Below, piece after piece: positions 6,793 through 28,523 of a stretch of DNA of 64,000 bases. Origin of the DNA: Clostridia bacterium (GTDB taxonomy: Bacteria; Bacillota; Clostridia; UBA1212; UBA1255); contig JAFZEI010000015.1 in NCBI GenBank assembly GCA_017560765.1, forward strand, positions 397-64,396, read 5' to 3'. The translations under genes were made by a program, and so were the position numbers. Each line of letters opens with the position of its first letter. The first letter of the stretch is position 1. Under the pieces are notes generated by a model. The model was not told the DNA's origin, did no database searches, and saw only the letters and a list, made by a program, of their open reading frames with translations.

Positions 6793-6922
6793 AAAAACAC
6801 TTCCTTCTCATAAACCAAAAAACTTCATCTCCGATAAAACAGAGACGAAGTAAAAAATACTCGATTATGATACCCTAAAAATTTTTTCATGTCAACGTGT
6901 AAGGAGCAACAGCCTGCCTTTT

Positions 6923-9130
6923 TCAGATTAATATCTTATGCACTTTTCCGTCATCTTCCAATTTTATTGTTTTGCATCCTTTTGATTTTACAGTAATGAT
7001 ATATACAGAATTTTTATATTTATATTCTATTGTATATTCCTTCCACTCATCCGGAATGTTTGCGTTCAATACTATTTCTGCTTTACCCTTAATTTCACTG
7101 TTTTTCACTGTAAATCCCAAAATATCTTCAAGAATCACCTGATACAGCCATGAGGACGAACCTGTATACCAAGTCCAACCGCCGCGACCAATATTTTCAT
7201 CGCTGTAAATATCTGCTGCAACAGCATAAGGTTCCGTTTTATAACGCGCAACTTCCAATTCTGTCCTGGTATGATTTATAGGGTTTATTACATCTACCAT
7301 ACGTCTTCCTTTTTTAGCAAAATCATCTCCCATTTTAAGAAATGCTTTTGCCAACCAAACTGCCCCATGGGTGTATTGTGCACCATTCTCACGTATTCCG
7401 GCAGGATATGACGCAATATAACCCACATCTTCAATAGAATCAGCAGAAAAAGGAGGCGTGAGCAGCTTTATTATTCCGTTGTTATAATCTGCCAAAAAGC
7501 GTTCCGCAGACAAAAGAGCAGTCTTGCACCTTTCTTTATTTCCAAAGCCGCTTAACACTGCCCATGATTGAGCTATGGAGTCTATCATACATTCTCCCGA
7601 ACGGTGGCTGCCTAAAACCCTCCCGTTATCACAAAACGCACGAATATACCAATTGCCATCCCAAGCATGTTTTTCTATGGCATCGGCAATTTTTTTTGTT
7701 TCCGTTTGCAATCTATGCCTGTCTACCTTTGCAGATTGAGACAGAAGCGACATTTTATCCAAGGCCTTTAGGCAATAACATAAGAACCAGCCGAGCCAGA
7801 CACTTTCGCCTTTACCTTGAATGCCCACGCGGTTCATTCCGTCGTTCCAATCACCGCCCATTATAAGCGGAATACCATGTTCTCCGTATCTCATTGCGTG
7901 CCTGCATGCCAACAGGCAATGGGAAAACAGACTCTCGCTTTTTTCAGATACCTCAGGTATCTCATATCTGTCAATTTCGTTAAAATCAAGAGATTTACTC
8001 TTAATATACGGTACTTTTATATCAAGAATCCCACTGTCTCCCGTAACTTCTATATAGCGAAAAGTCACGTAAACGAGCCACAGTAAATCGTCGCTGTATC
8101 TGCTGCGTATACCTGCATTTTCCGGAGGATGCCACCAATGTTGTACATCGCCTTCCTCATACTGTCTTGAGGCATGCAGTAAAATGCGCTCTTTAACTTT
8201 CTGCGGGTCTGTACATAAAAGGGCAAGGCTGTCTTGAAGTTGGTCTCTAAAACCATAAGCACCGCCGCATTGATAAAAAGCAGTTCTGCCATTTAAGCGG
8301 CAACTAACAGTTTGGTACAAAAGCCAACCGTTCATCATAACATTTATGCTCTTTTCCGGCGTAGTTATGCGAATTCGTCCTAAATATTCTGACCAATAAT
8401 CTTTTACTTTTTCAAGCGCCTCACTGCATGCTTCATATCTGGTATATTCTTGTAAAACAGTCTTATTGTCTGACAGTAGCAAAACACCTTTCCATGTATC
8501 ACCTTTAGAAACAGCCTTTCGTATATTTTCCGCCGAGGAATACATCTCGTGCCTGTATGGTGTTTCAACGGAATACTTTAGAGACAATTTCTTTTCTTTC
8601 TCCGACGTAATTTCAAAAAGCGTTATTTTAACACCTTTGTTTATTGGTACAAATGTTGTAAAACACCACTCTATTCCGTTATATTCTCCTTTAAAGGATG
8701 AATATCCATAGCCATGATGTGTTATGCAATTTGAAAAAGGAGAAATGGAATTTTCTCCTTCTTCTGTAAATTCTGTAATTTCTATACGTTCATCAGATAA
8801 ATCCTCCAGAGGATCGCAATACCAGCGAGTTATAGGATTTTCTCTGCTGTTTCCATGCCAAACGTAACCTCCGCCTTTTTCTGAAATAATAAAGCCAAAC
8901 GGTTCTCCTTCAGCAGCAGAGATGCAATTAATCCAAGGTACAGGAGGACTTTTATATATAATATATTCTCCTGACGATGTATCAAAACCACCAAATCCAT
9001 TGTTAAATTCCAAATTACCGTAATTAAAATTCCTTTTCACAAGCAGCACTCCCAATTTTTTATCATAGCCAAAAGACAAGATTTGATGCTTCAATGATTG
9101 GTGCAGCTCCGTTACTGTCTTTAGGCACAA
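6923..9130 (-). CDS. Cyclic beta-1,2-glucan synthase-like protein, C-terminal GH94 (glucan phosphorylase-like) part; probably the same gene split by a frameshift
   Basis: GH94 catalytic-region motifs (GGDWNDGMNRVG, (alpha/alpha)6-barrel-like sequence). No credible ATG or RBS at its 5' end. Its open frame begins inside the 3' end of the upstream ORF. Confidence 0.65.
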   Translation of the reverse strand: MCLKTVTELHQSLKHQILSFGYDKKLGVLLVKRNFNYGNLEFNNGFGGFDTSSGEYIIYKSPPVPWINCISAAEGEPFGFIISEKGGGYVWHGNSRENPITRWYCDPLEDLSDERIEITEFTEEGENSISPFSNCITHHGYGYSSFKGEYNGIEWCFTTFVPINKGVKITLFEITSEKEKKLSLKYSVETPYRHEMYSSAENIRKAVSKGDTWKGVLLLSDNKTVLQEYTRYEACSEALEKVKDYWSEYLGRIRITTPEKSINVMMNGWLLYQTVSCRLNGRTAFYQCGGAYGFRDQLQDSLALLCTDPQKVKERILLHASRQYEEGDVQHWWHPPENAGIRSRYSDDLLWLVYVTFRYIEVTGDSGILDIKVPYIKSKSLDFNEIDRYEIPEVSEKSESLFSHCLLACRHAMRYGEHGIPLIMGGDWNDGMNRVGIQGKGESVWLGWFLCYCLKALDKMSLLSQSAKVDRHRLQTETKKIADAIEKHAWDGNWYIRAFCDNGRVLGSHRSGECMIDSIAQSWAVLSGFGNKERCKTALLSAERFLADYNNGIIKLLTPPFSADSIEDVGYIASYPAGIRENGAQYTHGAVWLAKAFLKMGDDFAKKGRRMVDVINPINHTRTELEVARYKTEPYAVAADIYSDENIGRGGWTWYTGSSSWLYQVILEDILGFTVKNSEIKGKAEIVLNANIPDEWKEYTIEYKYKNSVYIITVKSKGCKTIKLEDDGKVHKILI

Positions 9131-12100
9131 TTACAAAAATATCGCCTCTTACAGGGAAACATCCCCACATAGCTCTTTGCACAAGAGAATCGGCCAACTC
9201 GTGTATCGGACTTACATAGTCTGAATTGTCAAAGACTGCTAAAACCATATCAAGTTTTATACCTCTGAAACTATAATAGCACCACATTCTTACTAATCTT
9301 TCAAGTCTTACAGCATTTTCGACTTTGCGTATCAAAACAGTAATTATAGGATTGTCGCCTGAAATACCGTAGCCCCATAAATGCTTTTTTGTTTTATCGT
9401 CATAATATTTTCTGCCGTAAAGTAATTTAGAAGCATAACTTCTGAAAAATTGCATATCTCCTTTTCTAAAAGAAATATGTTCTTTTTCTATGAGGCAACG
9501 CGTCCTTGCCAATTCAAAAATACGTTGTGTGTTGGCAAAACTGTTAATTTCTGTAAAAGCAGTCTCTTTATTCTGATTCATGCCCATAACAAGCGAAAAA
9601 ACTGCATTTTCTCCGGCTTCGACACGCAACTTAAGATTTACTGCAAAGCATGGATTTAAAACGGTTCCAGCTATGCCTGATAACAAAAAGTCAGAACTAC
9701 CGTTTCTTCCCTTAAAAGAAAGTACATCAGTGTCATACATTATTGATTCCACCTGTTTTTTGCTTTCAGAAGAAACATCCACATAAAAGTAACTTTCCAC
9801 ATGATTATCCGTCGGCTTATGCTTTCGCCTTGTTGCCAAAAGGCAAACACTTGAGCTTTCTGTCTTTACAGCTTTCGTGGTAATAAACATTCCCGAATAA
9901 GAAGGATGCGCCGCATACGAAGCAGGATAGTCCATCATAAGTCTGCAATACAATGTTATGTTTTCATACAGCTCATTTTTCCCTTTGTTTGTAATTTTAA
10001 AAATACGAACTTCTGCGTTATCTTCCGTTGCTACACATATACTTTGTGTTACTTCCTCTTGTTTTGTAAGGTAGAGATATTCACCGCTCCCGGAATAAAC
10101 AGTACATTTTACAGGTTTCATCATTTCACCATTTAAATAAAACACAATACCCTCAGGTAAAATTTGTTCTCTGTGAACATCAATGCCCATCCCGCATAGG
10201 GAAGAATAGCTGTTTCCCTGACCGTTGATTACCACACTGTATTTACCATTTGACAGTACATGAGCATCGTGTCCGGAAATGCAAACGTACTGTTCCTGCT
10301 GTTTTTCTTCACCTGAAGGTTCTTTACGGACAAGCTCATTTTTCGTCTTTGAAGCGTGTTTTTTAAATGCTTTTTTAGGGAACTTTTCTGTAAGCATTAC
10401 TTTAACCGGTTGCATCATTGCCATGTCGCTCAAGCCTTTTGATACCATTTCGTCAAAAAGCAAGTTTGCAATGCCGCATAAAGCCATACCCACATGATGT
10501 GCCATAAAACTTTCTACAATGCCTTTTCTTCCCGGAGTAAAGTCAATTGCCTCGTAATAACCATATTTTCCCTCTGTTCCCAATCGTGACAACAGCTCCA
10601 TATTACTGAATACTGCTTGTGGCGTAATGCTGCTTGCCATTAGACTTGCATAAGGTGCTACAACTGCATCGTCATTATGCATTCTCTTGACTGCCAAAGA
10701 TTTTAGGCCAAAAGCTTTGTATTTATAATTCATATTTATATCAAGCGCATTATAACCTGATTCTGAAATACCCCAAGGTTTATCTCCCGCAAGACTTTGC
10801 TGAATTTCCAGCATTTCATAAATCGATTTATTTAAAGCCGAACCGCAAGGCGACGGCACAAACAATTCAGGCAATACATATTCAAAAACAGTTCCGGACC
10901 AAGAAAGAAGCACATTGCCATCTTCATTACATCTGCGTGCAAGAGCAGAAAAGTGTTCCGCCTCCACATCACCCTTTGCCATGGCCACATAAGAAGTCAG
11001 CCGCGCCTCCGACATAATCATATCATAAAAAGAATTTGAAAATTCCCCCGTACTGTAATTATAACCTATACATAAATGCCTATGCTTATCGTTATACAGA
11101 ATGCCAAAATCCATTGCCAAAGCCATATTTTTCATTCTGGCTGCCAGAATTTTTTTATCCTCATATAAATTAAAAACACCTTGTGTAATATTTTTTTCTG
11201 CATTAACAAGCATTTCTTTCAAATTACAGCGAAAAGAATGGGCGTCTGCCTTTTCGTTCTTTACAGGCGCAACAAGCTCTTTATAATATTGTATTACTCT
11301 CAGAAATTCTTCTTTTGTATAATTATCTTTATTTAAGAATTCTTCTAAAACCCATATTTCTGCTGTATTTCCTTTTTCTGCAAATTCGTTTAAACAACAT
11401 ACTGTATCGTACAGACCTTCAGCAGATTTTTTTATATAATCTTCTGTTGTCTCCACTTCATTTATTGAATTTATCAGTGAAGACGCTGCCAACAGGCAAG
11501 CAGCAAGATTGCCGCTGTCTACACAAGAAACGTATTTTGGTTCCAGAACCTGCAAAGACATTGTGTCATACCAATTAAAAATATGCCCGTTCCACTTGTC
11601 CATTCTGTCTAAGGTATTCATAATTTTTTCTAAACGAACAAGCATTTCTCCTTGAGATATATAACCGAAGTGTTGTGCAATTACAGTAGAAACTATCAAA
11701 AAACCAATATTTGTAGGAGATGTTCTGTGGGCTACCGAATACACCGGCGAAAATTGCACATTGTCAGGGGGCAGAAAATTATCGCTTTCTACGGCATAAT
11801 CGTAATAAAAAGCCCATATTTTTCTTGCATTAATACGAAATTTCTTTATTTGAAGCTTTGTAAGTTTTTTAGATTTATTTCCGTATCTTTGTTTAATTGT
11901 TTTTTTAGAACAAACATAAGCTCCCCACGGTCCTAAAATCCACAATACACTTGGAATTCCAAACAAAAAAGGCGCCATAACAGCTGCCGAAGCAAAATTT
12001 ATCCACATTGTTCTGTTATAGTAAGCTAATGTATTTTGTATGCTTTTGTCAGCATCAGAGGAAACAACCCATTCCAGCATTTTCTGTCTGCTGCGAAAAG

Positions 12101-14543
12101 TTCTCCACACCGCACGTATCATACCATCTGCATGAACAAGGAAAGTGTGTGGAAGCAGTATAAAATTGCTTAGTACTCGCATGATTCTTGGTACGAATCT
12201 ACCTCCCGATGTGATTAACAGTGTACCTGTAACGATAAAAACCCATAAAAAGGCATCACGGCGAAGAAAAAGCATTCCTATCACAAAAACCATAAAAAGA
12301 GCTACAGGCAACAAACTTCTTAATAAATTCATTCCGATTTTAAAACGCGAGTAAAAATTAAGAGGATTATTTTTTAATACACCTTTTTCGTTTTCAAATC
12401 TTTTTCCCAAAAAAGGAAGTAACTGCCAATCTCCTCTTATCCACCTATGCTCTCTTTTAATATATCCACCGTAGCTGCGGGGAAAACTGTCATATAAATG
12501 AACATCCGAAACAAATGCAGTTCTTACAAAGGAACCTTCCAAAAGGTCGTGGCTTAATATACTGTTTCTTTTAAATCTCCCATCAAGAACACCATTGAAA
12601 ACATAAGGATCATACATGCCCTTTCCCGTATATATTCCCTCTGCGCAAACATCAAAATAAAAATCTGATGTTTTGCATCCGTATGAATCAAATCCCACTT
12701 CATCACTGTAAATTTTTTCAAAAATTGTTGTATTTTCTCTGTCGAGTCCTGATGGGGATATTGCAGGCTGCAAAAGCCCGTAACCCTTTGTCACCACGGG
12801 TTCACCTTTTACATAACTTATCTGCGGACGGTTTAAAGGATGATACATAATTTGCGCCATTTTGACAGCCGTATTTATTGGAATTACTGAGTCCGCATCT
12901 ACTGTCAGCACATAATTCACTTTTGGCAACTCACCTTTAATAATTGCTCTGTTAAGCTCAATAAGTGCACCTCTTTTTCTCTCATACCCCATCCATTTAT
13001 TGTCTTCTTTATAAAAATCTCTTTCCCTGACAAGTATACAAAAACGTTCACCTAACTTTTCTGTTTCTGTCTTTGCATACTGAATGAGTTCCCTGTCTTC
13101 CGGTGTGGTTTTTGTGGTACTTTCAGGTAAATCTGCCAACAAAGTATACCAAATCCCCTCTTGAGGATTTGCCCAATATGCCGCCTCCAATTGCTTAATC
13201 ATTTCGTCTACTCGTTTTTTTGAGGTTATCATACATGGCAAAACTATCATAATTTTACAATCCTCAGGTAATTTACCATGAAATTCCATTTCCGGCAGCG
13301 AAAACGGCATCTTCCTGTCCGTGTACATTTTCTGTATCAATGACAAAGAAATATTCATTGACGCAATTAATATAAGCAAAACGCAAAAGGCTCCTAAAAA
13401 TATTCCGAATATACCGTAAAGTTCCATAGAAAGCCCATACGCATAAACTCCGGGGCAAAAGGCCAAAACGGCAGAAGTAAACAAGAACATAACAAAAAAA
13501 GAGCCAAAGTCATTATGCTTTGTATAGTCCTCATATATAAAATCCCCTACATGAGCCTGCCGGTTTTGAGCCTTTTCCAATACTTCCAATGCATATTTTT
13601 CGGGAGAGGTATGTTTGCGTTTTGCACATACTTGTACAATACGCAAATATTCACGTCTTGACTTGGATGTCATTTTGTTAAAAATTCCCGTGGGATCTTT
13701 GCGTAAAATCTGCTCTGTAACACAAAGCTCAGACATAATTTTATCCCAATCCAGTGACGGCAAATCCCTTAGACTTTTTATGGCATTTCCCATAGAAACA
13801 CCTAATGAAATTCTCGTTCTGTGTTCTCTTTCTATCAGCTCTTCAACCGTTGTTCCTTTTGCTGCCAGCTTACCGGAAAGAGCAGTTCTTATTGTGTCAT
13901 TCTGTTCTAATTCAGCAGACAACCGAAGTACAGTTTCGGCAAAAACAGGCGTTATCATATCTGCATTATCAAACAAAACAGCTGCACTTCTCATGCGCTG
14001 CCCATTTTCCGTAGTGTAAGAAGAAAACTCTCTGAAAATTTTCTCGGCTGTTTTTCTGTCTTTGTATATTTTATCCGAAATTTTACAAATTTCTGCAATT
14101 CTCTTAATAAGTGCCACTTGTAGCATACATGGCAAAAACGTAAGAGACTCGGTATCTATTGGTCTTATTTTTTCATACGACGTTACAAAATCCAATATTT
14201 CCCGCTGCCCAATGCAGCCATCTGTATGCGAAGCAATTTCCGCCGCCAAATCATAAACAGGTAAAATTTTACGACTGTATTCTTCGTTTTTTACACTTTC
14301 GGCAGCCTCATTTACAACATGATAATTGTCAGCTATCCACTCGTCCGACGGAATACTTTGCAATTTTTGCGTATTTTCGCCATCTGACATAATTCTGCTG
14401 TATGTTTCATCTATACTTCCACTGCATTTTTCTATTGACGGAATGCTCCTTACGCCGTATCTGCCTTGCAAATGCTTTTCTCCGATATTTGCAGCATGCT
14501 TTATATATTCTTTTCCCGTTAATAATGTATCCTCAAGAATCAT
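9063..14543 (-). CDS. Cyclic beta-1,2-glucan synthase-like protein, N-terminal part (GT84 glycosyltransferase, membrane segments, start of GH94 region)
   Basis: 1826 aa. TM helices surround a GT84-like domain (YERKRGALIELNRAI, YVLTVDADSVIP, HRWIRGDWQLLPF), followed by GH94 N-terminal/barrel-like sequence. The frame ends at 9063 and overlaps the next ORF. Confidence 0.7.
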   Translation of the reverse strand: MILEDTLLTGKEYIKHAANIGEKHLQGRYGVRSIPSIEKCSGSIDETYSRIMSDGENTQKLQSIPSDEWIADNYHVVNEAAESVKNEEYSRKILPVYDLAAEIASHTDGCIGQREILDFVTSYEKIRPIDTESLTFLPCMLQVALIKRIAEICKISDKIYKDRKTAEKIFREFSSYTTENGQRMRSAAVLFDNADMITPVFAETVLRLSAELEQNDTIRTALSGKLAAKGTTVEELIEREHRTRISLGVSMGNAIKSLRDLPSLDWDKIMSELCVTEQILRKDPTGIFNKMTSKSRREYLRIVQVCAKRKHTSPEKYALEVLEKAQNRQAHVGDFIYEDYTKHNDFGSFFVMFLFTSAVLAFCPGVYAYGLSMELYGIFGIFLGAFCVLLILIASMNISLSLIQKMYTDRKMPFSLPEMEFHGKLPEDCKIMIVLPCMITSKKRVDEMIKQLEAAYWANPQEGIWYTLLADLPESTTKTTPEDRELIQYAKTETEKLGERFCILVRERDFYKEDNKWMGYERKRGALIELNRAIIKGELPKVNYVLTVDADSVIPINTAVKMAQIMYHPLNRPQISYVKGEPVVTKGYGLLQPAISPSGLDRENTTIFEKIYSDEVGFDSYGCKTSDFYFDVCAEGIYTGKGMYDPYVFNGVLDGRFKRNSILSHDLLEGSFVRTAFVSDVHLYDSFPRSYGGYIKREHRWIRGDWQLLPFLGKRFENEKGVLKNNPLNFYSRFKIGMNLLRSLLPVALFMVFVIGMLFLRRDAFLWVFIVTGTLLITSGGRFVPRIMRVLSNFILLPHTFLVHADGMIRAVWRTFRSRQKMLEWVVSSDADKSIQNTLAYYNRTMWINFASAAVMAPFLFGIPSVLWILGPWGAYVCSKKTIKQRYGNKSKKLTKLQIKKFRINARKIWAFYYDYAVESDNFLPPDNVQFSPVYSVAHRTSPTNIGFLIVSTVIAQHFGYISQGEMLVRLEKIMNTLDRMDKWNGHIFNWYDTMSLQVLEPKYVSCVDSGNLAACLLAASSLINSINEVETTEDYIKKSAEGLYDTVCCLNEFAEKGNTAEIWVLEEFLNKDNYTKEEFLRVIQYYKELVAPVKNEKADAHSFRCNLKEMLVNAEKNITQGVFNLYEDKKILAARMKNMALAMDFGILYNDKHRHLCIGYNYSTGEFSNSFYDMIMSEARLTSYVAMAKGDVEAEHFSALARRCNEDGNVLLSWSGTVFEYVLPELFVPSPCGSALNKSIYEMLEIQQSLAGDKPWGISESGYNALDINMNYKYKAFGLKSLAVKRMHNDDAVVAPYASLMASSITPQAVFSNMELLSRLGTEGKYGYYEAIDFTPGRKGIVESFMAHHVGMALCGIANLLFDEMVSKGLSDMAMMQPVKVMLTEKFPKKAFKKHASKTKNELVRKEPSGEEKQQEQYVCISGHDAHVLSNGKYSVVINGQGNSYSSLCGMGIDVHREQILPEGIVFYLNGEMMKPVKCTVYSGSGEYLYLTKQEEVTQSICVATEDNAEVRIFKITNKGKNELYENITLYCRLMMDYPASYAAHPSYSGMFITTKAVKTESSSVCLLATRRKHKPTDNHVESYFYVDVSSESKKQVESIMYDTDVLSFKGRNGSSDFLLSGIAGTVLNPCFAVNLKLRVEAGENAVFSLVMGMNQNKETAFTEINSFANTQRIFELARTRCLIEKEHISFRKGDMQFFRSYASKLLYGRKYYDDKTKKHLWGYGISGDNPIITVLIRKVENAVRLERLVRMWCYYSFRGIKLDMVLAVFDNSDYVSPIHELADSLVQRAMWGCFPVRGDIFVIVPKDSNGAAPIIEASNLVFWL

Positions 14544-14600
14544 TTCACAACTACACCTCGTTGCTTTATTATTCGCAAGGAAGGTAAATTTTATACAAAT

Positions 14601-15392
14601 TCAGACCTTTTTCAATCTGGAATAATCGCCCTCTCTCATTGTGCAATAAATTCTGGATGGATCAAGCTCCCAGCCGTTTCCTGTATTCCTGTTTAGCAGT
14701 TCATCAACAGTTACAAAACGATATCCTTTTTCTTTTAAAATATCCATGGCTCTGAATGCTGTTTCTATAGATGTTTCATAATTATCATGGAGTAAAACAA
14801 TATCTCCGTCAAAAGTGTTTTCAACTATTGTTTTTACCATTTTATCTATATTTCTGCATTGCCAATCACGAGTATCATAATATCCCCAGCAAACAGTTAT
14901 CATGGGTGCTGCTATATTTCTCACCCAAGGAGCAGTCAATGCGCTGCCTCCCGGTGGTCTCATATATTTAGTCTCCTGACCTGTTATTTCTTTTATAAGT
15001 TCATTTGTTTTTTTTAGCTCATAATCAACTTTTTCATGTGTTGATTTGCTGAGCCAACAATGAGAATACGAATGATTTGCAACAGTATGTCCCTCTCTTG
15101 CCATACGTGCAACAAGCTCTCTGCCTTTTGCAATCTCCCAATCCTCATATTTACCGGATTTATAATCCAATCTTTCACCTACAACAAAAAAAGTTGCTTT
15201 TGCATCTCTTTCGGCCAAACCATCCAAAAGCTTTTTTGTATATATGGGATTTGGCCCGTCATCAAACGTAAAAGCGACCATGGGCTTTATTCCCTCTCCG
15301 TTATCTGCTTTTACATAAACAGGAAAGAAAAGCGACAATACAATTACTAACCAAATTATAAAAATTGTTTCTATAAGATACACTTTGCGCAT
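14601..15392 (-). CDS. Polysaccharide deacetylase (NodB homology domain), membrane-anchored/secreted
   Basis: N-terminal TM segment. NodB motifs TFDDGP and HSYSH. Confidence 0.8.
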   Translation of the reverse strand: MRKVYLIETIFIIWLVIVLSLFFPVYVKADNGEGIKPMVAFTFDDGPNPIYTKKLLDGLAERDAKATFFVVGERLDYKSGKYEDWEIAKGRELVARMAREGHTVANHSYSHCWLSKSTHEKVDYELKKTNELIKEITGQETKYMRPPGGSALTAPWVRNIAAPMITVCWGYYDTRDWQCRNIDKMVKTIVENTFDGDIVLLHDNYETSIETAFRAMDILKEKGYRFVTVDELLNRNTGNGWELDPSRIYCTMREGDYSRLKKV

Positions 15393-16161: not shown

Positions 16162-17397
16162 TTAATCTCTTTTGAAAAGGTCTCTCGTATACACTTTCTC
16201 TTTAACATCATCAAGGCAAGCGTCATATCTGTTTGCTATTATACAATCACACTGCTTTTTAAAAGTCTCTAGGTCATTTACAATTTTACTGCCGTAAAAT
16301 ACTGAATTATCCTCCAAAGTCGGCTCATAAATAATAACAGTCGTTCCTTCTGCTTTTATTCTCTTCATTACTCCCTGTATAGAACTCTGTCGGAAATTGT
16401 CGGAATTGCTCTTCATTGTCAATCTATAAACGCCTACAGTGAGATTTTGCGCGTTATTTCCGTCAAAGCCTGCCTTTTTTAGCACACGCTCCGCAATAAA
16501 ATCTTTTCTCGTCCTGTTGCTTTCTACAATCGCACCTATCAGATTTTCAGGAATATCTGCATAATTCGCAAGCAACTGCTTTGTATCTTTTGGCAAGCAG
16601 TACCCTCCGTAACCGAATGAAGGATTATTGTAGTGATTGCCTATTCTTGGGTCTAAACATACACCTTCTATTATTGCTTGTGTGTCAAGGCCTTTGATTT
16701 CCGCATACGTATCCAGCTCATTAAAATACGATACTCTCAAAGCCAAATATGTGTTTGCAAAAAGCTTCACTGCCTCTGCCTCTGTAGTTCCCATGAAAAG
16801 AGTATCAACATTTTCTTTGATTGCGCCTTCTTGTAAAAGTTCTGCAAAAGTATGAGCTGCTGTCACAAGCTTCTCGTTTTGCATATCCGTTCCCACTATT
16901 ATTCTTGACGGATACAAGTTGTCATACAAAGCTTTTGATTCTCTTAAAAACTCAGGGCTGAAAAGTATGTTTTCTGTGTTATATTTTTTTCTTACTTTTT
17001 CTGTGAAGCCTACAGGTATTGTGGATTTTATTACCATTACAGCATTTGGATTGCATTTTTTTACAAGTTCTATGACTGCTTCGACTGCCGTTGTGTCGAA
17101 ATAATTTTTTGTGCTGTCATAATTGGTTGGTGCTGCAATAACTATAAAATCTGCATCGGAATATGCTTTGTCCCCATCTACCGTTGCTGTTAGATTTAAT
17201 TCTTTGGTAGATAAATATTCTTCAATTTCTTTGTCCTGTATGGGTGATTTTTTTTCATTAATAAGAGCTACCTTTTCAGGGACAATGTCTACAGCAGTAA
17301 CTTGATTATGCTGTGCCAAAAGGACAGCTAATGAAAGTCCCACATATCCTGTTCCGGCAACTGCAATTTTAAAATTATTCATATTATCCTCCCACAA
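16162..17397 (-). CDS. ugd: UDP-glucose 6-dehydrogenase (nucleotide-sugar dehydrogenase family)
   Basis: N-terminal Rossmann motif [10 protein letters not shown], catalytic Cys region GGYCLPKD and a C-terminal UDP-binding domain. Confidence 0.85.
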
Positions 17398-17400
17398 AAT

Positions 17401-18582
17401 TTACGAAATAATTTCTGCAGAAATTTTTTTGCAAGAGAGCTTTTCGCAAGGTTCCCAAATCTGCTTTTCTGCCATAAGAGCTCTGATTTTTTGTATGATA
17501 TCGTTTTCTTCATTATTACACCATAAATATCTGTCAAAGCCTGCAATATACTCTATCATTGCTTCTTTGTTATCTCCGTCTACAAGTACAAGCACAGGTC
17601 TGTTAGTAGCAGCATAATGATAAAGCTTTCCCGGTATTTGCGTGCCTTTTTTATTAAGAACGCAAATATATAAATCAGTTTTCTTTTCAAGCTCACTTAT
17701 ATCGCCTCTTGGAAAAACATTTATATTATCTGTTTTTTCAAGTGCAAAATCTGCTTTTCCCATAACATTCAATATCAATTCATTCTTCATGCCGTTACAA
17801 GCATTATACAAAGGCATAATATCTCTGTTATTCGAAAAATAATCTCCGTAATAACCTACAGTAAATATATTATTTTTTGTTTCACGATAAATCTTCGTTT
17901 CGATGAACGGAGTAGGCACAAATATCATTTTGTTTGCAAACTCCGGTTGTATTCTCTGCTCTTCTTGTAGTGTGAACGGTGATGTATAAACAATTTTATC
18001 TGCCTTTGAAAAGAGCTTTTTTTCTTCTCTTTTTATTGCTTTTTTAGTGTATATTGTTTTTGATGCTGAGATATCTCCTACCAAAGGGTCTCCCCAATAC
18101 TGTATCCACTTTTTATAAGTTAAACCTTGCTCAACTAATTTTGCCATAGCTATATGGCTTGTCTTTGGATCGGAATCTGACATCACATACTCATATTCTT
18201 TTGACGGAAGTTTTTCTATAGAAACTTTTTTTGCGATATCATGTGTAAAATCGTAAAGTGTTGTATAATGATACAATTTTCTTGCTATTTTAAATAGTTT
18301 ATGTTTTATACCGCCTTTTGAACCGCTAAGCATTCCGTATACTGCTTGATTTGCACCGCCGTTTTTTTCTTCATCTGCATAAATTATATTGACTTGCTCC
18401 ATAAAACCATAGCCGGACAAATCCTTTAATACTATATTTGAATTTGCATGAATGCAGAACAAATCTACTTCATATCCGTTCTCAACGAATCCCTTTATTA
18501 CAGCCAATGTTCTAATCATGGATGATGAAGAAGCATTTGGTGCTGCCATTTTTACTACGAGAATTTTTTTGTTATTTTTCAT
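17401..18582 (-). CDS. Putative glycosyltransferase (GT-B fold, GT4-like)
   Basis: 393 aa with an N-terminal Rossmann-like half and a C-terminal half typical of GT-B enzymes. Only weak motif conservation can be judged by eye. Confidence 0.4.
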   Translation of the reverse strand: MKNNKKILVVKMAAPNASSSSMIRTLAVIKGFVENGYEVDLFCIHANSNIVLKDLSGYGFMEQVNIIYADEEKNGGANQAVYGMLSGSKGGIKHKLFKIARKLYHYTTLYDFTHDIAKKVSIEKLPSKEYEYVMSDSDPKTSHIAMAKLVEQGLTYKKWIQYWGDPLVGDISASKTIYTKKAIKREEKKLFSKADKIVYTSPFTLQEEQRIQPEFANKMIFVPTPFIETKIYRETKNNIFTVGYYGDYFSNNRDIMPLYNACNGMKNELILNVMGKADFALEKTDNINVFPRGDISELEKKTDLYICVLNKKGTQIPGKLYHYAATNRPVLVLVDGDNKEAMIEYIAGFDRYLWCNNEENDIIQKIRALMAEKQIWEPCEKLSCKKISAEIIS

Positions 18583-19669
18583 TTTCCAATATATCCGCTA
18601 TTCTTTTGCATGCAAAACCATCCCCGTAAGGATTGCTGGCATGTGCCATCTTGTTATATTCTTCTTTGTTATCCAGAAGCTTCGTAAAATTATTATATAT
18701 CACTTCTTCATCTGTGCCTACCAGCTTTAATGTGCCGGCTTCAATCCCTTCCGGGCGTTCCGTTGTATCTCTCATAACGAGAACAGGTTTACCCAAAGAG
18801 GGCGCTTCCTCCTGTATTCCGCCGGAGTCTGTAAGTATCATATAGCTGTTAGCCAAAAAGTTATGAAAATCGAGTACCTCCAATGGCTCAATAATATGAA
18901 TTCTGTCACAATTGCCCAACTCTTCTGAGGCTGCTTGTCTTACAACCGGATTCATATGAATGGGATAAATTGCCTTTACGTCAGGGTGTTCGTCTAATAC
19001 TCTACGTATTGCACGGAACATATTATGCATAGGCTGTCCCAAATTTTCTCTGCGGTGTGCTGTTATAAGAATCAGTCGGCTGTCTTTTGCCCATTCCAAC
19101 TCTTTATGAAAATACTCTGTCTTTACAGTAGTTTTTAAAGCATCTATAGCCGTATTTCCCGTAACATATATATACTTTTCATCTTTGCCTTCTTTTACAA
19201 GATTTTCTTTTGCGAGTAAGGTAGGTGCAAAGTTATATTTTGCAACAATAGATACTGCCTGTCTGTTAAACTCCTCAGGATAAGGACTGTATATATTAAA
19301 TGTTCTCAATCCTGCTTCAACATGTCCGATTGGAATTTGCAAATAAAAACAAGCAAGTGCAGTAACAAAAGTTGTGGAAGTATCACCATGAACAAGAACG
19401 ACATCAGGCTTTACTTGTTCTAATACAGCTTTAATACTGTTTAATATATTTGTAGTTATATCAAACAATGTTTGTTTTTCTTTCATTACAGATAAATCAT
19501 AATCCGGCGTTACATCAAAAGCGTCCAAAACTTGATCAAGCATTTGTCTGTGCTGTCCTGTAACACAAACGACAGTATTTATATTTTTTCTTTTTTTTAG
19601 CTCGTTTACAAGAGGACACATTTTAATTGCCTCAGGTCTTGTGCCGAAAACTAACATTACTGTTTTCAT
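18572..19669 (-). CDS. wecB: UDP-N-acetylglucosamine 2-epimerase (non-hydrolysing)
   Basis: N-terminal MKTVMLVFGTRPEAIKM. Conserved HVEAGLRT and GNT motifs. Confidence 0.9.
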   Translation of the reverse strand: MKTVMLVFGTRPEAIKMCPLVNELKKRKNINTVVCVTGQHRQMLDQVLDAFDVTPDYDLSVMKEKQTLFDITTNILNSIKAVLEQVKPDVVLVHGDTSTTFVTALACFYLQIPIGHVEAGLRTFNIYSPYPEEFNRQAVSIVAKYNFAPTLLAKENLVKEGKDEKYIYVTGNTAIDALKTTVKTEYFHKELEWAKDSRLILITAHRRENLGQPMHNMFRAIRRVLDEHPDVKAIYPIHMNPVVRQAASEELGNCDRIHIIEPLEVLDFHNFLANSYMILTDSGGIQEEAPSLGKPVLVMRDTTERPEGIEAGTLKLVGTDEEVIYNNFTKLLDNKEEYNKMAHASNPYGDGFACKRIADILENEK

Positions 19670-19694
19670 TATAATACCTTCTTCTGTTTATAAA

Positions 19695-20918
19695 TCACAA
19701 ATAGTAAACACTATCTGAATTTATTCCGATATTTTGCGTGTCTAAAACAATTTTTCCCTTTAATTTGTCTGCATTTTCTTTTATCTCATTATGTTTTACC
19801 ATAATAACAACAAAATCTACAGATGATAAGAATTCATCCAAATCAAAAATCTGGTTTTCTGTTATGTTATGCTTTATAAATGGATCATACGCAACAAGAG
19901 GTTGTGCCAAATGTTTTTTCTGACACTCCAAAAGCTGCAGAGCCGGGGATTCTCTGTAGTCGTCCACATTCTCTTTATAAGTCAATCCGTATAAGCCTAC
20001 TTTTGATATGTCTGTCATGCCCTTTTCTTTCATTATGTCATGAATTCTTTCTAAAACAAAAGCCGGCATAGAATCATTTACTTTCATCGATTCCCATATC
20101 ACTTTTGTAAGGCTCGGGTAATCTCCTACCAAAAACCACGGGTCTACGGAAATGCAATGGCCTCCCACTCCGGGGCCCGGATTAAGAATATTTACCCTTG
20201 GGTGCATATTGCAAATTTTAATGATTTCATAAACATTCATATTGTCATTTCTGCAAATTTTTGCCAACTCATTTGCAAACGCTATATTTACTGCTCTGAA
20301 TGTATTCTCTACAACTTTTGTCATTTCTGCCGTTTTTATATCAGTAATAATTATTTCTCCTTGGCAAAAAGAAGCATAATACTCTTTTATTTTCTCACCG
20401 ATTTCTCTGTCATCTGCACCTATTGTTCTGTTGTTATGCAAAAGCTCATATACCATATTGCCGGGAATAATTCTTTCGGGGGCATGTACAAGATTTATAT
20501 CTTTTCCAATAATTAAACCTGCCTTTTCTATTACCGGCCTTACATATTTATCAATTGTTCCGGGAGAAACAGTAGACTCTATTACAATAGTAGCTCCTTT
20601 AGGGCAAACTTTAATTATCTCTTTTACTGCAGAATTCACATAGCATACATCTATTTTTTTTGAAAAACTGTCATACGGAGTTGGCACAGACACAATATAT
20701 GTATCTGTAACACAATATTCCGTAGTAAATTTGATACCGCTCTTCAAAGCTTTTTCAAACAGTTCATCCAAGCCGTCTTCTTTAAAAGTCGTTTTCCCCG
20801 CATTGAGAGTAGCCACAAGTTCCTTATTATAATCTGTTCCTACCACTTCTACCCCATGAGATGCCATCATAAGAGCAGTCGGAAGACCTATATACCCCAA
20901 GCCAATAACATTTACCAT
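19695..20918 (-). CDS. wecC: UDP-N-acetyl-D-mannosamine dehydrogenase-like nucleotide-sugar dehydrogenase
   Basis: VIGLGYIGLP Rossmann motif and a catalytic Cys region (GGHCISVDP). Paired with wecB as in ManNAcA pathways. Confidence 0.8.
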   Translation of the reverse strand: MVNVIGLGYIGLPTALMMASHGVEVVGTDYNKELVATLNAGKTTFKEDGLDELFEKALKSGIKFTTEYCVTDTYIVSVPTPYDSFSKKIDVCYVNSAVKEIIKVCPKGATIVIESTVSPGTIDKYVRPVIEKAGLIIGKDINLVHAPERIIPGNMVYELLHNNRTIGADDREIGEKIKEYYASFCQGEIIITDIKTAEMTKVVENTFRAVNIAFANELAKICRNDNMNVYEIIKICNMHPRVNILNPGPGVGGHCISVDPWFLVGDYPSLTKVIWESMKVNDSMPAFVLERIHDIMKEKGMTDISKVGLYGLTYKENVDDYRESPALQLLECQKKHLAQPLVAYDPFIKHNITENQIFDLDEFLSSVDFVVIMVKHNEIKENADKLKGKIVLDTQNIGINSDSVYYL

Positions 20919-20925
20919 TCTTAAA

Positions 20926-22485
20926 TTACCTCGTTTTCCTTAATTGTGCCTTTTCTTCTTTATTTAAACCAAATGCCCACAATGTGCCCAGATAAACTAC
21001 AGCAAAAGCCGCAACACCCAAAAGCATTTTCGCAAGTAGATTTTCGAAAAGAAGTGTGGCTGCAAAGCAAGCTATTCCGCTTAAAATCAAGCAAATCCAA
21101 ATTTTACCGAATATGTTTTTATACATTTTTATCATATTAATTTTATAAATCTTGTAATAATAAATGTTCATTATTATTACGCTGCCAACAAAATAGCTGA
21201 AAGCAGTTCCTACAGCTGCCGCATAATAATTCCAAAAATACGTACCAACCAAGGAAATTATAATATTCAGTACCGTAGTCAAAAGTAAAATCATGGTTCT
21301 GAACACCAATCTATTCTGGGCCCTTAATATAGATAAGCATACATTGACACACAATTCCAACAAGGAAGGTAACATGAGTATTAGAACAATGATATACACA
21401 TCCTCATAGCCATTCCCTAACCATAAATTGACAAAAGTTTTACCTAAAACAATAAAACCTGTCAATGCACCTCCTAATAAAGCAAATTGTATTCTGCCTG
21501 CCTTAAGAATCAATTTTTGAGTCGCAGAAAGATTTTCATCATCGTTTTTTAAGGTTTCAGTTACTGTAGGAAGCATAACACTTGAAATAGATGTAGAAAG
21601 CTGCTCAAACATAGAAAATATCAATAATCCCATAGAATAAACTGTAACTGCTCCTGCGTTGACGACAGCTCCTATTATTACGTTATCAAGATTTCCGTTG
21701 GCTTGAGATGCAATAGTAGTGATAAAAATCAGCATAGAATACTTAAATGATTCTTTAAACACGCTGTGTTCCCATCTGCTGAATTTTATTTTAACATTTA
21801 ACACACGATTTATATAAACAATTTCAACGCAAAGCATTCCTATTGTCAAAAACAAGTCTAACAATACAATAACCAAGGCATCTTTTATAAAATGCAAAGC
21901 AACATATATTGTCAATATTCTTGTAAGCAAGCGGATTATCTTTAATCCGTTGCCAAACATGAATTTATTAAAACCTGTTATCACGCCATTGAAAACATTT
22001 TCAAAAATATGAGCAATAATGCCGGCACACAAAAAGACATACAGCTGTTTAGCTTTTACTAGCTCTGCTGCTGTAAGACCTTTCCCATATATATTGTCAA
22101 TAAAAAAATAAATAATTCCGGTAGCAATTATAACGACTACGCTAATAATACCTGCTTGAAATAAGCTCATAGATATAAAATTAGGTATTTTTTCTTCTTC
22201 TTTGTCAGCTCTGTATCTTGATATATATCTCAATAATGTACCGCCAAGACCAATATCTAAAACCAACAGTGCTGCTGTAAAAGAAGACATAGTCTTGTAA
22301 ACACCATAAGCACTGTCGCCTAGCTTGTCAACAATATATGGAGTAACCAACAAACCGGAAACAGTATTAAGTATTATTAATATATAAGAAAGAATCGCAC
22401 CATATTTTACTTGCGATAATGAAATTTTTCTCAAAGTTTTTCTCCCGTATTTTTTTCTTTTGCTCGCCTTATTATGCCAACACAC
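20926..22485 (-). CDS. wzx: Oligosaccharide flippase (Wzx, MOP superfamily)
   Basis: Roughly 12-14 predicted TM helices. Polysaccharide biosynthesis protein family pattern. The true start is probably downstream of the listed one, which overlaps the next gene. Confidence 0.7.
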   Translation of the reverse strand: MCWHNKASKRKKYGRKTLRKISLSQVKYGAILSYILIILNTVSGLLVTPYIVDKLGDSAYGVYKTMSSFTAALLVLDIGLGGTLLRYISRYRADKEEEKIPNFISMSLFQAGIISVVVIIATGIIYFFIDNIYGKGLTAAELVKAKQLYVFLCAGIIAHIFENVFNGVITGFNKFMFGNGLKIIRLLTRILTIYVALHFIKDALVIVLLDLFLTIGMLCVEIVYINRVLNVKIKFSRWEHSVFKESFKYSMLIFITTIASQANGNLDNVIIGAVVNAGAVTVYSMGLLIFSMFEQLSTSISSVMLPTVTETLKNDDENLSATQKLILKAGRIQFALLGGALTGFIVLGKTFVNLWLGNGYEDVYIIVLILMLPSLLELCVNVCLSILRAQNRLVFRTMILLLTTVLNIIISLVGTYFWNYYAAAVGTAFSYFVGSVIIMNIYYYKIYKINMIKMYKNIFGKIWICLILSGIACFAATLLFENLLAKMLLGVAAFAVVYLGTLWAFGLNKEEKAQLRKTR

Positions 22486-23657
22486 AATCCAATAAGCAGG
22501 AAGAAGTTTGGTTCTAATAAATACGAACTTGACAAAAATAATTTAAAGAAGCTATTTGTGCAAAGCAAAGCTATAATGAAAGTTTTTTCTTTACTGCTCT
22601 CACATTTTGACAATGCACTAATATAAAGCGCTATCAATATTCCGAATATTAAAGAACCGCCAAGCACACCAAAGGACACCCATAATTCCAAAATAATGTT
22701 ATGCGCATATGCCGTTGTAAACTCTCTGTCTGCTGCAACACCCAGTCCCCAAGGATTTTCCTTTATTACAGACAGTAAGGTTTTATTAATATTATCACGT
22801 CCATTTGGGTCTGCTATTTCTCCTTCTTTAAAACTGTCCAAAATTCTGGTACTCATACCCATACTTGAAACTATCTCCCTCAAAAAGTCAATAATCTCAT
22901 CCATAAACAAAAAGACAACAAGAAGAAATAAAATAATTGCTAAATAAGCGACTATTTTGTTTTTTGTTTGCTTTATAAAGACAAAATATGCAAAAGCAAA
23001 AACTATTATTGCAACAACAGGGCCTCTTGTGCCATATGATATCAATAGCACAAATCCTATAATCATGGCAATCAGATCAATTTTTTTATATTTTTCAAAG
23101 AAATATCCGGCTGTCAGTGCAACATGAGGAAGGAGTTTATATGCCATACCCATATTGTCATCACCAATTTGCAATGTATCTGTTCCGAAAATTATTAAAC
23201 TTGCCAAATCTGCAAAAATTGCATAAACAGAAAGGACGTGTAAATAGTCAATCACCTTTTCACTTCTGTATGCCGCACCTACAAGAAATAAGGTGAGAAT
23301 GAATAAAATAAAATCTCGTCTTTCCTCTGATAATACTGTAGCAACCTCTGTATAAGCTGCGTATTGTATTCCTAATTGATATCCGGCTGCAACAGCAAAG
23401 TATAGAAATATATCAGATAGCCGCAATCGCTCAAAAAAGTAAGAGACAGAAAGCAAAATTGCCGTAATAAAAAACAAATAAACTACAATTTCTGTAATGT
23501 AGTTAAAAAACGGCAACCTGTACATGACAAGTTTTAAGTCAGAAATTAATGTATTGTTTGCCCAAACCAAGCAAAACAAAAATAAAAAAAACATTTCTGA
23601 ATTAAAAGGTTTCTCTAATATATTTATATTTTTTGGATATTCTCTATTGATTGCCAT
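22431..23657 (-). CDS. wzy: O-antigen ligase/polymerase-like membrane protein (Wzy-like)
   Basis: Polytopic membrane protein with a large periplasmic-type loop, in the context of wzx and GT genes. Confidence 0.55.
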   Translation of the reverse strand: MAINREYPKNINILEKPFNSEMFFLFLFCLVWANNTLISDLKLVMYRLPFFNYITEIVVYLFFITAILLSVSYFFERLRLSDIFLYFAVAAGYQLGIQYAAYTEVATVLSEERRDFILFILTLFLVGAAYRSEKVIDYLHVLSVYAIFADLASLIIFGTDTLQIGDDNMGMAYKLLPHVALTAGYFFEKYKKIDLIAMIIGFVLLISYGTRGPVVAIIVFAFAYFVFIKQTKNKIVAYLAIILFLLVVFLFMDEIIDFLREIVSSMGMSTRILDSFKEGEIADPNGRDNINKTLLSVIKENPWGLGVAADREFTTAYAHNIILELWVSFGVLGGSLIFGILIALYISALSKCESSKEKTFIIALLCTNSFFKLFLSSSYLLEPNFFLLIGLCVGIIRRAKEKNTGEKL

Positions 23658-23674
23658 AAATTCCCCTTCTTGAT

Positions 23675-24703
23675 TTACTTACCAATTAATATAGGCAACA
23701 CAAAAGTCCATAAGCCTGTTCTGCATAAAAAAAGGAAAAATCTGTATTTATAAGATAATTTTCTGTACATTTCCTTTTTATTCAAAACATCCCACGGCTC
23801 TTTATTTAAATATTCTTTTACAATATGTCTTTTTTCTTTTGATGTCTTAGGACACTTTTCAGAAAGCAATTCGCAAGATACAACAGTATAAAATTCCATT
23901 GCAAGATTTTTAGCATAACACAGTGTATTTTCTTTTATAAAAGCTGCATTTTCTTTTTTTAAGAGCTCTGCATATCTGCAAAGTATTTCTTCCCTATTTC
24001 CATAATATTTTCTCATGGAGGAACTTTCATATATCACATAGCAGTACCATATATCCAGAACGACACAAATATTACTGCACTTGTTTGTAAATTGCATATT
24101 CCATAAAACGTCTTCCCCTAAGGGTTGTCCCACAGGGAAAGGATTATTCTTCGCAACATCACTCTTTATGAGTCTTGCACATGGACCTCTGCCTATATAG
24201 CCATATTTTTTTACGTTTTTATATTCGGTCCGATTTGTCATCAAAAAGTAACTGCGCAAATCATCCATATTTTCTTTTGTATAAATATGATATTGTTTGT
24301 TTTCTTGTAACGGAATACTAACACTTTCCCCCGGTTTTGTTTTTGCAACTGCCGCAATCACCATGTCAGAATTTGTCTCTTTTATGATTTGAAGTCCCTC
24401 TGAAATTGCTTGAGGAAGCAGTACATCATCTGAATCCAAATACATAATATAGTCTCCGGTTGCAAGTTCTGTACCGTAATTTCTCGCAGCGCTTACTCCT
24501 TTGTTTTCACAATGAAAAACACGAATTCTATCATCGAGACTTTTTTGCAAATCACAAAAAGCAGCAGTTTCTTCATTTGAGCCATCGTCAATTATTATAA
24601 TTTCAACATCTTTGAAAGTCTGATTAAAAAGACTTTCCATGCAACGGTTCATATATTCACAATTAACATTGTATACAGGTATTATTACGCTGACAACAGC
24701 CAT
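23675..24703 (-). CDS. Glycosyltransferase family 2
   Basis: N-terminal VSVIIPVYN plus DDGS and DSDD motifs typical of GT-A/GT2. Confidence 0.8.
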   Translation of the reverse strand: MAVVSVIIPVYNVNCEYMNRCMESLFNQTFKDVEIIIIDDGSNEETAAFCDLQKSLDDRIRVFHCENKGVSAARNYGTELATGDYIMYLDSDDVLLPQAISEGLQIIKETNSDMVIAAVAKTKPGESVSIPLQENKQYHIYTKENMDDLRSYFLMTNRTEYKNVKKYGYIGRGPCARLIKSDVAKNNPFPVGQPLGEDVLWNMQFTNKCSNICVVLDIWYCYVIYESSSMRKYYGNREEILCRYAELLKKENAAFIKENTLCYAKNLAMEFYTVVSCELLSEKCPKTSKEKRHIVKEYLNKEPWDVLNKKEMYRKLSYKYRFFLFLCRTGLWTFVLPILIGK

Positions 24704-24715
24704 ATTTTCCTCTTT

Positions 24716-25612
24716 TTAATACTTTATTCTAACGTAAATTTTAGCCAGCAAGCGTCTGGTACAAGCCAACATGTATCTCAAATATTGAAATACGCACACT
24801 TTTTTATCAAATACATACGAAACGATATTTACGCTTACTCCGCAATCCATAAGCTTTTTGTTCTTATTGTTATACTTAGTTCGTGAAAAAACCGTCATCC
24901 CGCTTTCTGAATATTTTTCAATTTCACCGGGAAACTTTTCTGTATACATAAACGGATATGAAATAAATAAAACACTGTTCTCTTTTAAAAACGATATTAC
25001 AGCATCAACATCATTTTCTCCCATATTGTATTCATATCTGGCACAATATATCCCTTTATATCCTAATTTTGAAACTATCGCTACAGTTTCTGTAGTATAT
25101 GCTTCTATCAGAAATCTTTCTTTTAATTCTGTTTTTTCTCCTATACACAACGAAAGTACATCAAGGAAATTCAAAATCTGTTCCTCTGTAAACATTCCGA
25201 ATAAATCGAGCATAAAAACAGTATCATTATACTCTGATAGCATATCAATAATATTTTGTAAGGATATAGGAGTAAGTCCCTTTGTGGATAAAGAAAAAAG
25301 AGTCTGTTTCATAAACCAGTCAAAGTCATATACATTGGGCTTTTCAAAAACCTCCATACGTCTCATTGACTTTTCATCAACAGTATGAGCAACGGCAACA
25401 TATTTGTTGTCAGTTGTTTTTCCGATGTCAAATTCAAAAACCTTAACACCTTTTTTATACCAACGCAAAAATGCCTCTTTTGTATTGGTTTGTCTTACAC
25501 CGGCAAAAGCACCGAGACCGTGCATACAATAATTAAATTTACCTTTTAATTCATGAACTGTCATCGTATTAAAGTTTTGCTGCCTCTGCAATTGCCAAAT
25601 CGTTTTCATCAT
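24716..25612 (-). CDS. Hypothetical protein, divergent glycerophosphodiester-phosphodiesterase-like (GDPD-like) fold candidate
   Basis: Loose match to the GDPD N-terminal pattern (HG..xxNTKEAF...G..FEFDI..T.DNKYVAVAH). The probable true start is the internal Met near 25564. Confidence 0.35.
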   Translation of the reverse strand: MMKTIWQLQRQQNFNTMTVHELKGKFNYCMHGLGAFAGVRQTNTKEAFLRWYKKGVKVFEFDIGKTTDNKYVAVAHTVDEKSMRRMEVFEKPNVYDFDWFMKQTLFSLSTKGLTPISLQNIIDMLSEYNDTVFMLDLFGMFTEEQILNFLDVLSLCIGEKTELKERFLIEAYTTETVAIVSKLGYKGIYCARYEYNMGENDVDAVISFLKENSVLFISYPFMYTEKFPGEIEKYSESGMTVFSRTKYNNKNKKLMDCGVSVNIVSYVFDKKVCVFQYLRYMLACTRRLLAKIYVRIKY

Positions 25613-26309: not shown

Positions 26310-26327
26310 TTTTACTTACTCCTTTCT

Positions 26328-27732: not shown

Positions 27733-27739
27733 ATATCTC

Positions 27740-28519: not shown

Positions 28520-28523
28520 CGCC

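Follow-up and report, generated by a model that had tools for sequence, protein, structure and literature searches.

A probable two-gene, two-subunit form of the synthase for cyclic beta-1,2-glucan in a Clostridia bacterium

The stretch of DNA analysed here, referred to as the window, comprises 64,000 nucleotides (nt) from a Clostridia bacterium (assembly GCA_017560765.1, contig JAFZEI010000015.1) and carries on its minus strand two consecutive open reading frames (ORFs) that together reproduce the architecture of Cgs/NdvB, the synthase of cyclic beta-1,2-glucan. We conclude that this pair is very probably a natural two-gene, two-subunit Cgs operon in which each gene is translated independently. 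The large subunit gene (ORF1, 9063..14543) encodes 1826 amino acids (aa) from an ATG, and the small subunit gene (ORF2, 6923..9040) encodes 705 aa from a GTG. A sequence-only reading of this DNA had described minus-strand ORFs of 1826 and 735 aa that overlap by 68 nt, and had assigned them jointly to Cgs; the coordinates were confirmed, and the assignment was upheld by Pfam and by alignment to the Agrobacterium tumefaciens enzyme (AtCgs). What did not hold was its proposal of one interrupted gene: the DNA has two genes with a stop between them and a separate start for each, an outcome that the sequence-only reading had itself listed as refuting.

The junction between the two genes (9041..9065, minus strand) comprises a stop, a spacer and a start. 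ORF1 ends in ...GDIFVIVPKDSNGAAPIIEASNLVFWL-TGA, which gives its protein the C-terminus ...NLVFWL, and the minus strand continues 3' of this TGA (9065-9063) with taaaaaattGGGAGtgctgcttGTGaaaagg. A spacer of 22 nt separates the stop from the ORF2 start codon, GTG (9040-9038), and includes a GGGAG Shine-Dalgarno sequence (9053-9049) located 8 nt upstream of the GTG. The sequence-only reading was thus correct that ORF2 lacks an ATG, but not that it lacks a ribosome-binding site (RBS). The 735-aa length it reported, counted from a TTG, is the mechanical maximum of the open frame (6923..9130), and the product of ORF2 is likely to be the 705-aa protein initiated at the GTG, a choice that places its N-terminus at the start position common to all homologues. 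Upstream TTG starts, including one giving 723 aa that is picked by some gene callers, were rejected because the stretch they add at the N-terminus overlaps ORF1 and is matched by nothing in the homologues, and because the GTG and GGGAG are conserved in L096, the closest divergent relative. The T5 run to which the sequence-only reading drew attention is real and lies at 9139-9135 of the minus strand, although the string quoted for it was off by 1 nt. Across this run the ORF2 frame reads ata-ttt-ttg-TAA, with the TAA at 9133-9131, and a joining of the frames at this site was rejected because a slip there, whether of ribosome or polymerase, would run straight into a stop.

The same layout is found in relatives of the window, which form what we call the compact clade. 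Ten loci were assigned to it, namely L004, L006, L007, L008, L009, L011, L012 and L096, together with L005 and L010, which are second assemblies of two of the others. Junctions were read at the first eight, whose identities to the window are 91% for L096, 73% for L004, 63% for L006, 62% for L012, 60% for L007, 48% for L009 and 45% for both L008 and L011. In all eight contexts fetched, a gene of 1811-1973 aa is directly followed by a gene of 703-772 aa, and gene 2 lies right after gene 1 in every compact-clade locus examined, within otherwise differing neighbourhoods. At each junction gene 1 closes with ...(A/S)xx(L/I/V)(V/I)FW(L/M)-stop, an end that falls on one aligned position throughout; the spacer, 8-50 nt long, includes a purine-rich RBS (AGGAAA, GGGAG, GAGGTG, GGAGG and others), and gene 2 starts 3-11 residues ahead of a conserved (F/Y)xNGxGGF motif. 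Relative to gene 1, the reading frame of gene 2 varies by locus and may be 0, +1 or +2. The offset is +1 in the window and 0 in L096, where a single TAA stands between the genes in place of the TGA and the spacer measures 24 nt, and two other same-frame loci, L007 and L009, have a second in-frame stop within the spacer. No relative conserves the ORF2-frame sequence 5' of the GTG.

Sequence error and gene decay are both at odds with these data. A 401-nt junction identical to that of the window is present in three independent metagenome assemblies, which show 2-5 single-nucleotide polymorphisms across the 7.6-kb pair, and sequencing error is therefore excluded. Comparison of the window with L096 (an 89-91% relative) by the Nei-Gojobori method gave ratios of nonsynonymous to synonymous substitution (dN/dS) of 0.076 for gene 1 (dS 0.73) and 0.075 for gene 2 (dS 0.58), with values next to the junction of 0.107 (gene 1, last 200 codons) and 0.138 (gene 2, first 200 codons). 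Judged from these substitution patterns, both genes are under strong purifying selection and neither is decaying. The lengths of the two proteins are likewise stable. All ORF2 homologues between 99% and 44% identity are 698-772 aa long with 99% query coverage, and all ORF1 homologues between 99% and 53% identity are 1825-1882 aa long and have no GH94 catalytic domain, the next-best ORF1 homologues being fused proteins of 2800-2950 aa with at most 32% identity. The source names of the close homologues (Ruminococcaceae, Oscillospiraceae and Clostridiales metagenome-assembled genomes, and uncultured Clostridium sp. UMGS593) make the earlier suggestion of a Clostridia-like Firmicute reasonable, and the host of the two-subunit form is probably a gut organism of the Oscillospiraceae type.

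The large subunit corresponds to most of a canonical Cgs. Residues 50-1785 of ORF1 align to residues 75-1949 of AtCgs (phmmer, 8rf0_A, E 6.5e-209), and its content comprises an N-terminal domain, membrane helices, a GT84 domain, a GH189 cyclase, the GP1 supersandwich and a Rossmann-fold-like (RFL) subdomain. Pfam recovers a sub-threshold GT2-type match (673-776), Glycoamylase PF10091 (1253-1367) and a single GH94 beta-supersandwich, PF06165 (1427-1654, E 9e-19). NCBIfam was uninformative, with sub-threshold MdoH matches only for ORF1 and none for ORF2. The earlier GT84 and GH94 domain assignments held in searches, with the GT2 Pfam match alone falling below its cut-off. Four clear hydrophobic segments, rather than six, were detected in ORF1 at the threshold used (19-mers at 348-366, 378-396, 740-765 and 853-871); these are aligned with the transmembrane regions of AtCgs, as befits the membrane protein, with helices on either side of the GT domain, expected of GT84, and the same scan found no hydrophobic helix in ORF2.

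By alignment, the catalytic residues of all three predicted activities, as well as the priming tyrosine, are intact. Residue-by-residue alignment of the GT84 region (12339..13316, minus strand; motifs ERKRG, TVDADS, GFDSYG, SHDLLEG and HRWIRGDWQ) to AtCgs shows retention of R586 (ERKRG), the catalytic aspartates D624 and D626 (TVDADS) and D739 (SHDLLEG), and R776 (HRWIRGDWQ), all in AtCgs numbering, so that both the catalytic aspartates and the (Q/H)RWxRG motif of the family are present. The priming tyrosine of AtCgs, Y694 (GIDPYV), aligns with Y621 of ORF1 (GFDSYG), for which glycosylation is predicted. The GH189 cyclization (transglycosylase) domain (10344..11843, minus strand) was aligned to AtCgs and matches the cyclization domain of Thermoanaerobacter italicus CGS (TiCGS; 8wy1_A, phmmer E 3.7e-96). 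Its MSEAR motif carries E1179, equivalent to AtCgs E1300 and the TiCGS acid/base E1356, its WGISES motif carries the equivalent of AtCgs E1386 and the TiCGS nucleophile E1442, and its FMAHHVGM motif corresponds to the TiCGS His-His pair H1536/H1537, the catalytic residues being those described for GH189 (PMC10834661, PMC11842490). GP1, the first GH94-type beta-supersandwich (9582..10265, minus strand), is on the large subunit and coincides with the PF06165 match. It is followed by the RFL subdomain with its conserved C-terminal tail (GISGDNP ... ASNLVFWL; 9066..9476, minus strand), a region that aligns with fused Cgs proteins up to an A(R)VV(L/I/F) motif.

The small subunit supplies the remainder of the enzyme. 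Residues 7-687 of ORF2 align to residues 2041-2806 of AtCgs, the GH94 phosphorylase core (E 4e-151), and represent the GP2 beta-sandwich, the (alpha/alpha)6 catalytic barrel and the C-terminal sandwich (GP2-GP3). Pfam identifies the GH94 catalytic domain PF17167 (215-642, E 5e-107) and a second GH94 supersandwich (33-160). Both aspartates of the GH94 pair are retained, D266 in FRDQ (AtCgs D2393) and D400 in GGDWNDGMN (AtCgs D2528), and both are invariant in our alignment A1; the GDWNDGMN motif noted in the sequence-only reading is indeed present, the longer GGDWNDGMN occupying residues 395-403 (7832-7858). The FRD, QYTH and YTGS motifs are also invariant in this alignment, and they may correspond to the phosphate ligands (Arg, His, Thr) of cellobiose phosphorylase. 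An AlphaFold2 model of ORF2 (pLDDT 75.8, pTM 0.83) has a complete GH94 fold with a shortened N-terminal sandwich. In Foldseek searches this model was closest to AtCgs (8rf0_A, TMq 0.81, 34% identity), followed by GH94 cellobiose and chitobiose phosphorylases (TMq 0.75-0.79). AtCgs numbering is tied to that of the published structure (PMC10901819) through the two GP active-site mutations described there, D2393 and D2528, whose aligned positions are in FRDQ and DWND. The shortening lies within GP2 (8441-9040, minus strand), where residues ~155-206 of ORF2 take the place of residues 2177-2314 of 8rf9_A (2196-2333 in the numbering of the paper).

In AtCgs, the N-terminal domain, GT84 and the cyclase (CY, 979-1535) are followed from residue 1536 by the phosphorylase module, composed of GP1, RFL (1847-2012), GP2 and GP3 (PMC10901819). 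Aligning both ORFs to Cgs, as the sequence-only reading had proposed, locates the break at the RFL/GP2 boundary, which, as judged by this alignment, is a structural subdomain boundary. Ten aligned genes for fused Cgs share a poorly conserved linker of 45-55 residues here, running from the A(R)VV(L/I/F) motif to LxFFNGxGGF; in the window clade the first of these motifs is directly followed by the end of gene 1, and the RFL-GP2 linker is absent. The pair thereby departs from the canonical single-chain form in having a conserved stop, a spacer and an independent start between RFL and GP2. It otherwise retains the AtCgs domain order (N-terminal domain, transmembrane helices, GT84, CY/GH189, GP1, RFL, GP2, GP3) and shares with AtCgs the GT84 aspartates, HRWxRGDWQ, the priming tyrosine, both cyclase glutamates and both GH94 aspartates. 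Besides having one chain rather than two and possessing the linker, AtCgs is longer (~2830 aa versus ~2531 aa in total), with a GP2 longer by ~86 aa, and it differs from the window proteins in sequence (~30% identity for the large subunit and 34% for the small subunit in the structure-based alignment). The host of the pair is of Gram-positive type, and no Cgt/ChvA exporter is adjacent to it. TiCGS (8WY1), the founding member of GH189, is also a Clostridia-class Cgs with a conserved cyclase; the numbering of E1356 and E1442 and its naming as 'Glycosyltransferase 36' suggest that it is part of a one-piece protein. SOGP, finally, is a GH94 phosphorylase that acts on beta-1,2-glucan chains and whose GP1-3 resemble the C-terminal module of Cgs (PMC10901819). 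Unlike ORF2, it is a free-standing soluble enzyme whose own chain includes GP1, and its structural alignment to the ORF2 model gives a TMq of 0.69 at 13% identity.

From species-representative genomes, the 80 best GH94-module loci were taken, and 77 of them, those with a match extending to the start of the module, were screened: 67 were fused, 2 were split at the RFL-GP2 boundary, 5 looked like SOGP-type stand-alone genes and 3 were left unclassified. The frame in L019, L060, L062, L075 and L077 is open for just 1.5-1.7 kb upstream of GP2, which fits either stand-alone GP1-GP2-GP3 phosphorylases of the SOGP type or a split between CY and GP1. A further kind of split, which we term Lachnospiraceae-type, was seen in two other Clostridia lineages. 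One of the two split loci of the screen, L070, is of this kind; it comes from Anaerocolumna aminovalerica DSM 1283, a cultured organism, and has 2070 + 810 aa and an AAGGAGG RBS. Two more pairs, L092 (2038 + 810 aa) and L094 (2118 + 816 aa), were recognised from their second halves among the ORF2 homologues. These pairs resemble that of the window in having the break in the RFL-GP2 linker and either an RBS of their own or a stop/start overlap. They differ from it in that the break lies 20-30 residues further into the linker (~20 residues in L070) and that they keep the linker as well as a GP2 of full size. The overlap in L094, TGATG at 7999-8003, is a classic translational-coupling arrangement, and GP2 is of full length in the 810-aa small subunits. 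About 30 more clusters of 798-819 aa among the ORF2 homologues are candidate second halves of such pairs, beside the three (L070, L092, L094) that were checked.

A bootstrapped neighbour-joining distance tree of the GP2-GP3 module only recovered the compact split clade, including the window, as monophyletic (bootstrap 100) and the Anaerocolumna-type clade as separately monophyletic (100). The Lachnospiraceae-type and window-clade splits, which occupy separate clades of this GH94 tree, are therefore probably independent fissions. The GH94 protein of L094 in turn groups with L015, a fused gene of 2912 codons, again with bootstrap 100. Because of this tree grouping and the differing break points, the sequences suggest that the RFL-GP2 linker was split independently at least three times, with re-fusion as an alternative. 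Eleven fused Cgs-like proteins (P0169, P0172, P0177 and P0180-P0187) are only 2288-2464 aa long yet have all three Pfam domains, and look like a shorter one-piece form of Cgs.

These observations lend themselves to a working model of the enzyme. The 1826-aa membrane protein carries, besides the N-terminal scaffold, GP1 and RFL, a GT84 polymerase that has a self-priming tyrosine and a GH189 cyclase, and gene 2 is translated independently from its GGGAG and GTG to give a soluble 705-aa GH94 phosphorylase core (GP2-GP3). By docking non-covalently on the GP1/RFL part of the large subunit, the small subunit would restore a rigid phosphorylase module like that in the cryo-electron microscopy structure of the A. 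tumefaciens enzyme. The complex would then prime on Tyr621 and elongate the chain with UDP-glucose through GT84, with GH94 phosphorolysis setting chain length and GH189 closing the ring, as in the fused enzyme. The break itself may have arisen by gene fission in the RFL-GP2 linker, with the linker later lost in the window clade. We favour a complex because GP1 and RFL stay on gene 1, a stand-alone phosphorylase carrying GP1 itself, and because truncation at 1587 or 1846 inactivates AtCgs, an enzyme that can do without its GP catalytic residue (PMC10901819). That gene 2 has been kept beside gene 1 fits these truncation data, on our analysis.

Two explanations that keep a single gene or a single polypeptide were weighed against this model. 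According to the sequence-only reading, the ORFs might be the remains of one 2.5-2.9-kaa gene broken by a recent frameshift or indel, by an assembly or sequencing error, or by decay into a pseudogene, and the overlap in different frames, the missing ATG and the predominance of single-ORF Cgs genes elsewhere (67/77 screened loci) would all be accommodated by such an event. We nevertheless consider it extremely improbable, given that the stop, RBS and start are kept in relatives down to 45% identity, that the junction is the same in three assemblies, that selection is not relaxed on either side (dN/dS ~0.075), that the RBS and GTG persist in L096, and that the ORF2-frame sequence 5' of the GTG is unconserved. 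Nor does joining of the ORFs by programmed ribosomal frameshifting or stop-codon readthrough, a slippage site also having been raised in the sequence-only reading, fare any better. The short overlap with a nearby T5 run and the same-frame genes of L096 with their single TAA can be cited for it, but the TAA closing the target frame directly after the run, the second in-frame stops in L007 and L009, and an RBS and start codon at every locus speak against it, and since the relative frame varies among relatives, no single frameshift signal could be conserved. We give this mechanism next to no credence.

A third explanation accepts two genes and denies the complex. Gene 1 alone would act as synthase and cyclase, and gene 2 would encode a free cytoplasmic beta-1,2-oligoglucan phosphorylase that recycles or degrades glucan and forms no stable complex with it. 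This is the main surviving rival. In its favour, the TiCGS cyclization domain is active alone in vitro (PMC10834661), the GP catalytic residue is not essential to AtCgs function (PMC10901819), and stand-alone GH94 phosphorylases are common, with some of the screened loci resembling SOGP-type genes. We still think it unlikely. Gene 2 has no GP1, the GP1 and RFL regions left on gene 1 are under purifying selection, the two genes adjoin in every compact-clade locus examined, AtCgs without the region past 1846 is inactive, and ORF2 is nearest in both sequence and fold to the Cgs GP module rather than to a free phosphorylase.

Several points nevertheless weigh against the two-subunit operon. Binding between the two proteins is something we infer, and cyclic beta-1,2-glucan as the product, which for a canonical Cgs has about 17-25 glucose units, is predicted from homology only. 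ORF1 is just ~30% identical to characterised Cgs proteins, and no Cgt/ChvA-type ABC exporter was found beside the pair in the window neighbourhood. The AlphaFold2 model of ORF2, built from a shallow alignment, has low-confidence loops, including the one around DWND. In addition, the ORF2 GP2 sandwich is ~86 residues shorter than that of AtCgs, and the corresponding Pfam match spans only positions 1-135 of a 251-position model, or half of the supersandwich.

The probable two-subunit operon has consequences for both annotation and enzymology. In the literature searched, Cgs is presented as a single protein of many domains, and entries of GT84 count as 'intact CGSs' (PMC10901819, PMC11842490). 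Our literature search found no description of a two-gene Cgs, which is not proof of its never having been noted; split Cgs is common in sequence databases and undescribed in the literature we searched. Such gene pairs should be annotated neither as frameshifted pseudogenes nor as one merged gene. They represent a natural domain dissection of Cgs in which the RFL-GP2 linker is a permissive cut site, useful also for Cgs engineering, and in the compact 1826 + 705 aa system the phosphorylase module would be separately expressible, mutable and titratable. This bears on an open question about AtCgs, whose C-terminal half is essential when the catalytic residue within it is not. The pair is also a hint that uncultured gut Clostridia synthesise beta-1,2-glucan, a polymer for which the literature searched turned up no function in such organisms. 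A wider generalization is tentative, and we would not expect all of it to hold: Cgs may work as a heteromer, with GP2-GP3 an autonomous unit that docks on GP1/RFL and has been cut off at the same linker at least three times, the stoichiometry of the phosphorylase subunit may tune ring size or yield in this compact, gut-associated clade of Oscillospiraceae type, and abundant gut Firmicutes may make cyclic or linear beta-1,2-glucans. Should this be true, beta-1,2-glucans, until now studied mainly as a virulence or symbiosis factor of Proteobacteria, would be made by gut Firmicutes as well.

The surroundings of the pair are chromosomal, as indicated by rpoB/rpoC, fusA, tuf, PFOR and transketolase genes in the window. 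A promoter-like site, TTGAAA-16-TAAAAT (14588..14615, minus strand), lies just upstream of the large subunit ATG, and a terminator-like hairpin of 12 pairs with a T run (6822..6851, minus strand) lies ~70 nt past the small subunit stop; both are consensus matches only, and the number of promoter-like sites in the region is not above chance. Directly upstream of the large subunit gene is a CE4 polysaccharide deacetylase (PF01522; 14601-15392, minus strand). The same neighbour occurs in L001/L002, L004, L008, L011 and L096 and does not occur in L006, L007 or L009, and its adjacency may reflect a functional link or mere synteny.

Further upstream, a Wzx/Wzy-type polysaccharide cluster (~16162-34648, all on the minus strand) includes two UDP-sugar dehydrogenases, a UDP-GlcNAc 2-epimerase, a Wzx-type flippase, a Wzy-type polymerase and a GT2 glycosyltransferase, as well as LicD, a nucleotidyltransferase, a DegT aminotransferase and a Polysacc_synt_2 dehydratase. 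Two ORFs of this cluster, of 393 aa (17401-18582, minus strand) and 298 aa (24716-25612, minus strand), match no Pfam family at E <= 1e-5. Rfam searches of the whole 64-kb window returned no family at the gathering threshold, and no riboswitch or leader was found even beside the ribosomal and elongation-factor genes. Between rpoC and fusA/tuf lies an ORF of 1378 aa (50451-54587, minus strand) in which Pfam recognises nothing but ricin-B-type lectin repeats close to the C-terminus; such an insert is unusual in this run of housekeeping genes, which is normally conserved.

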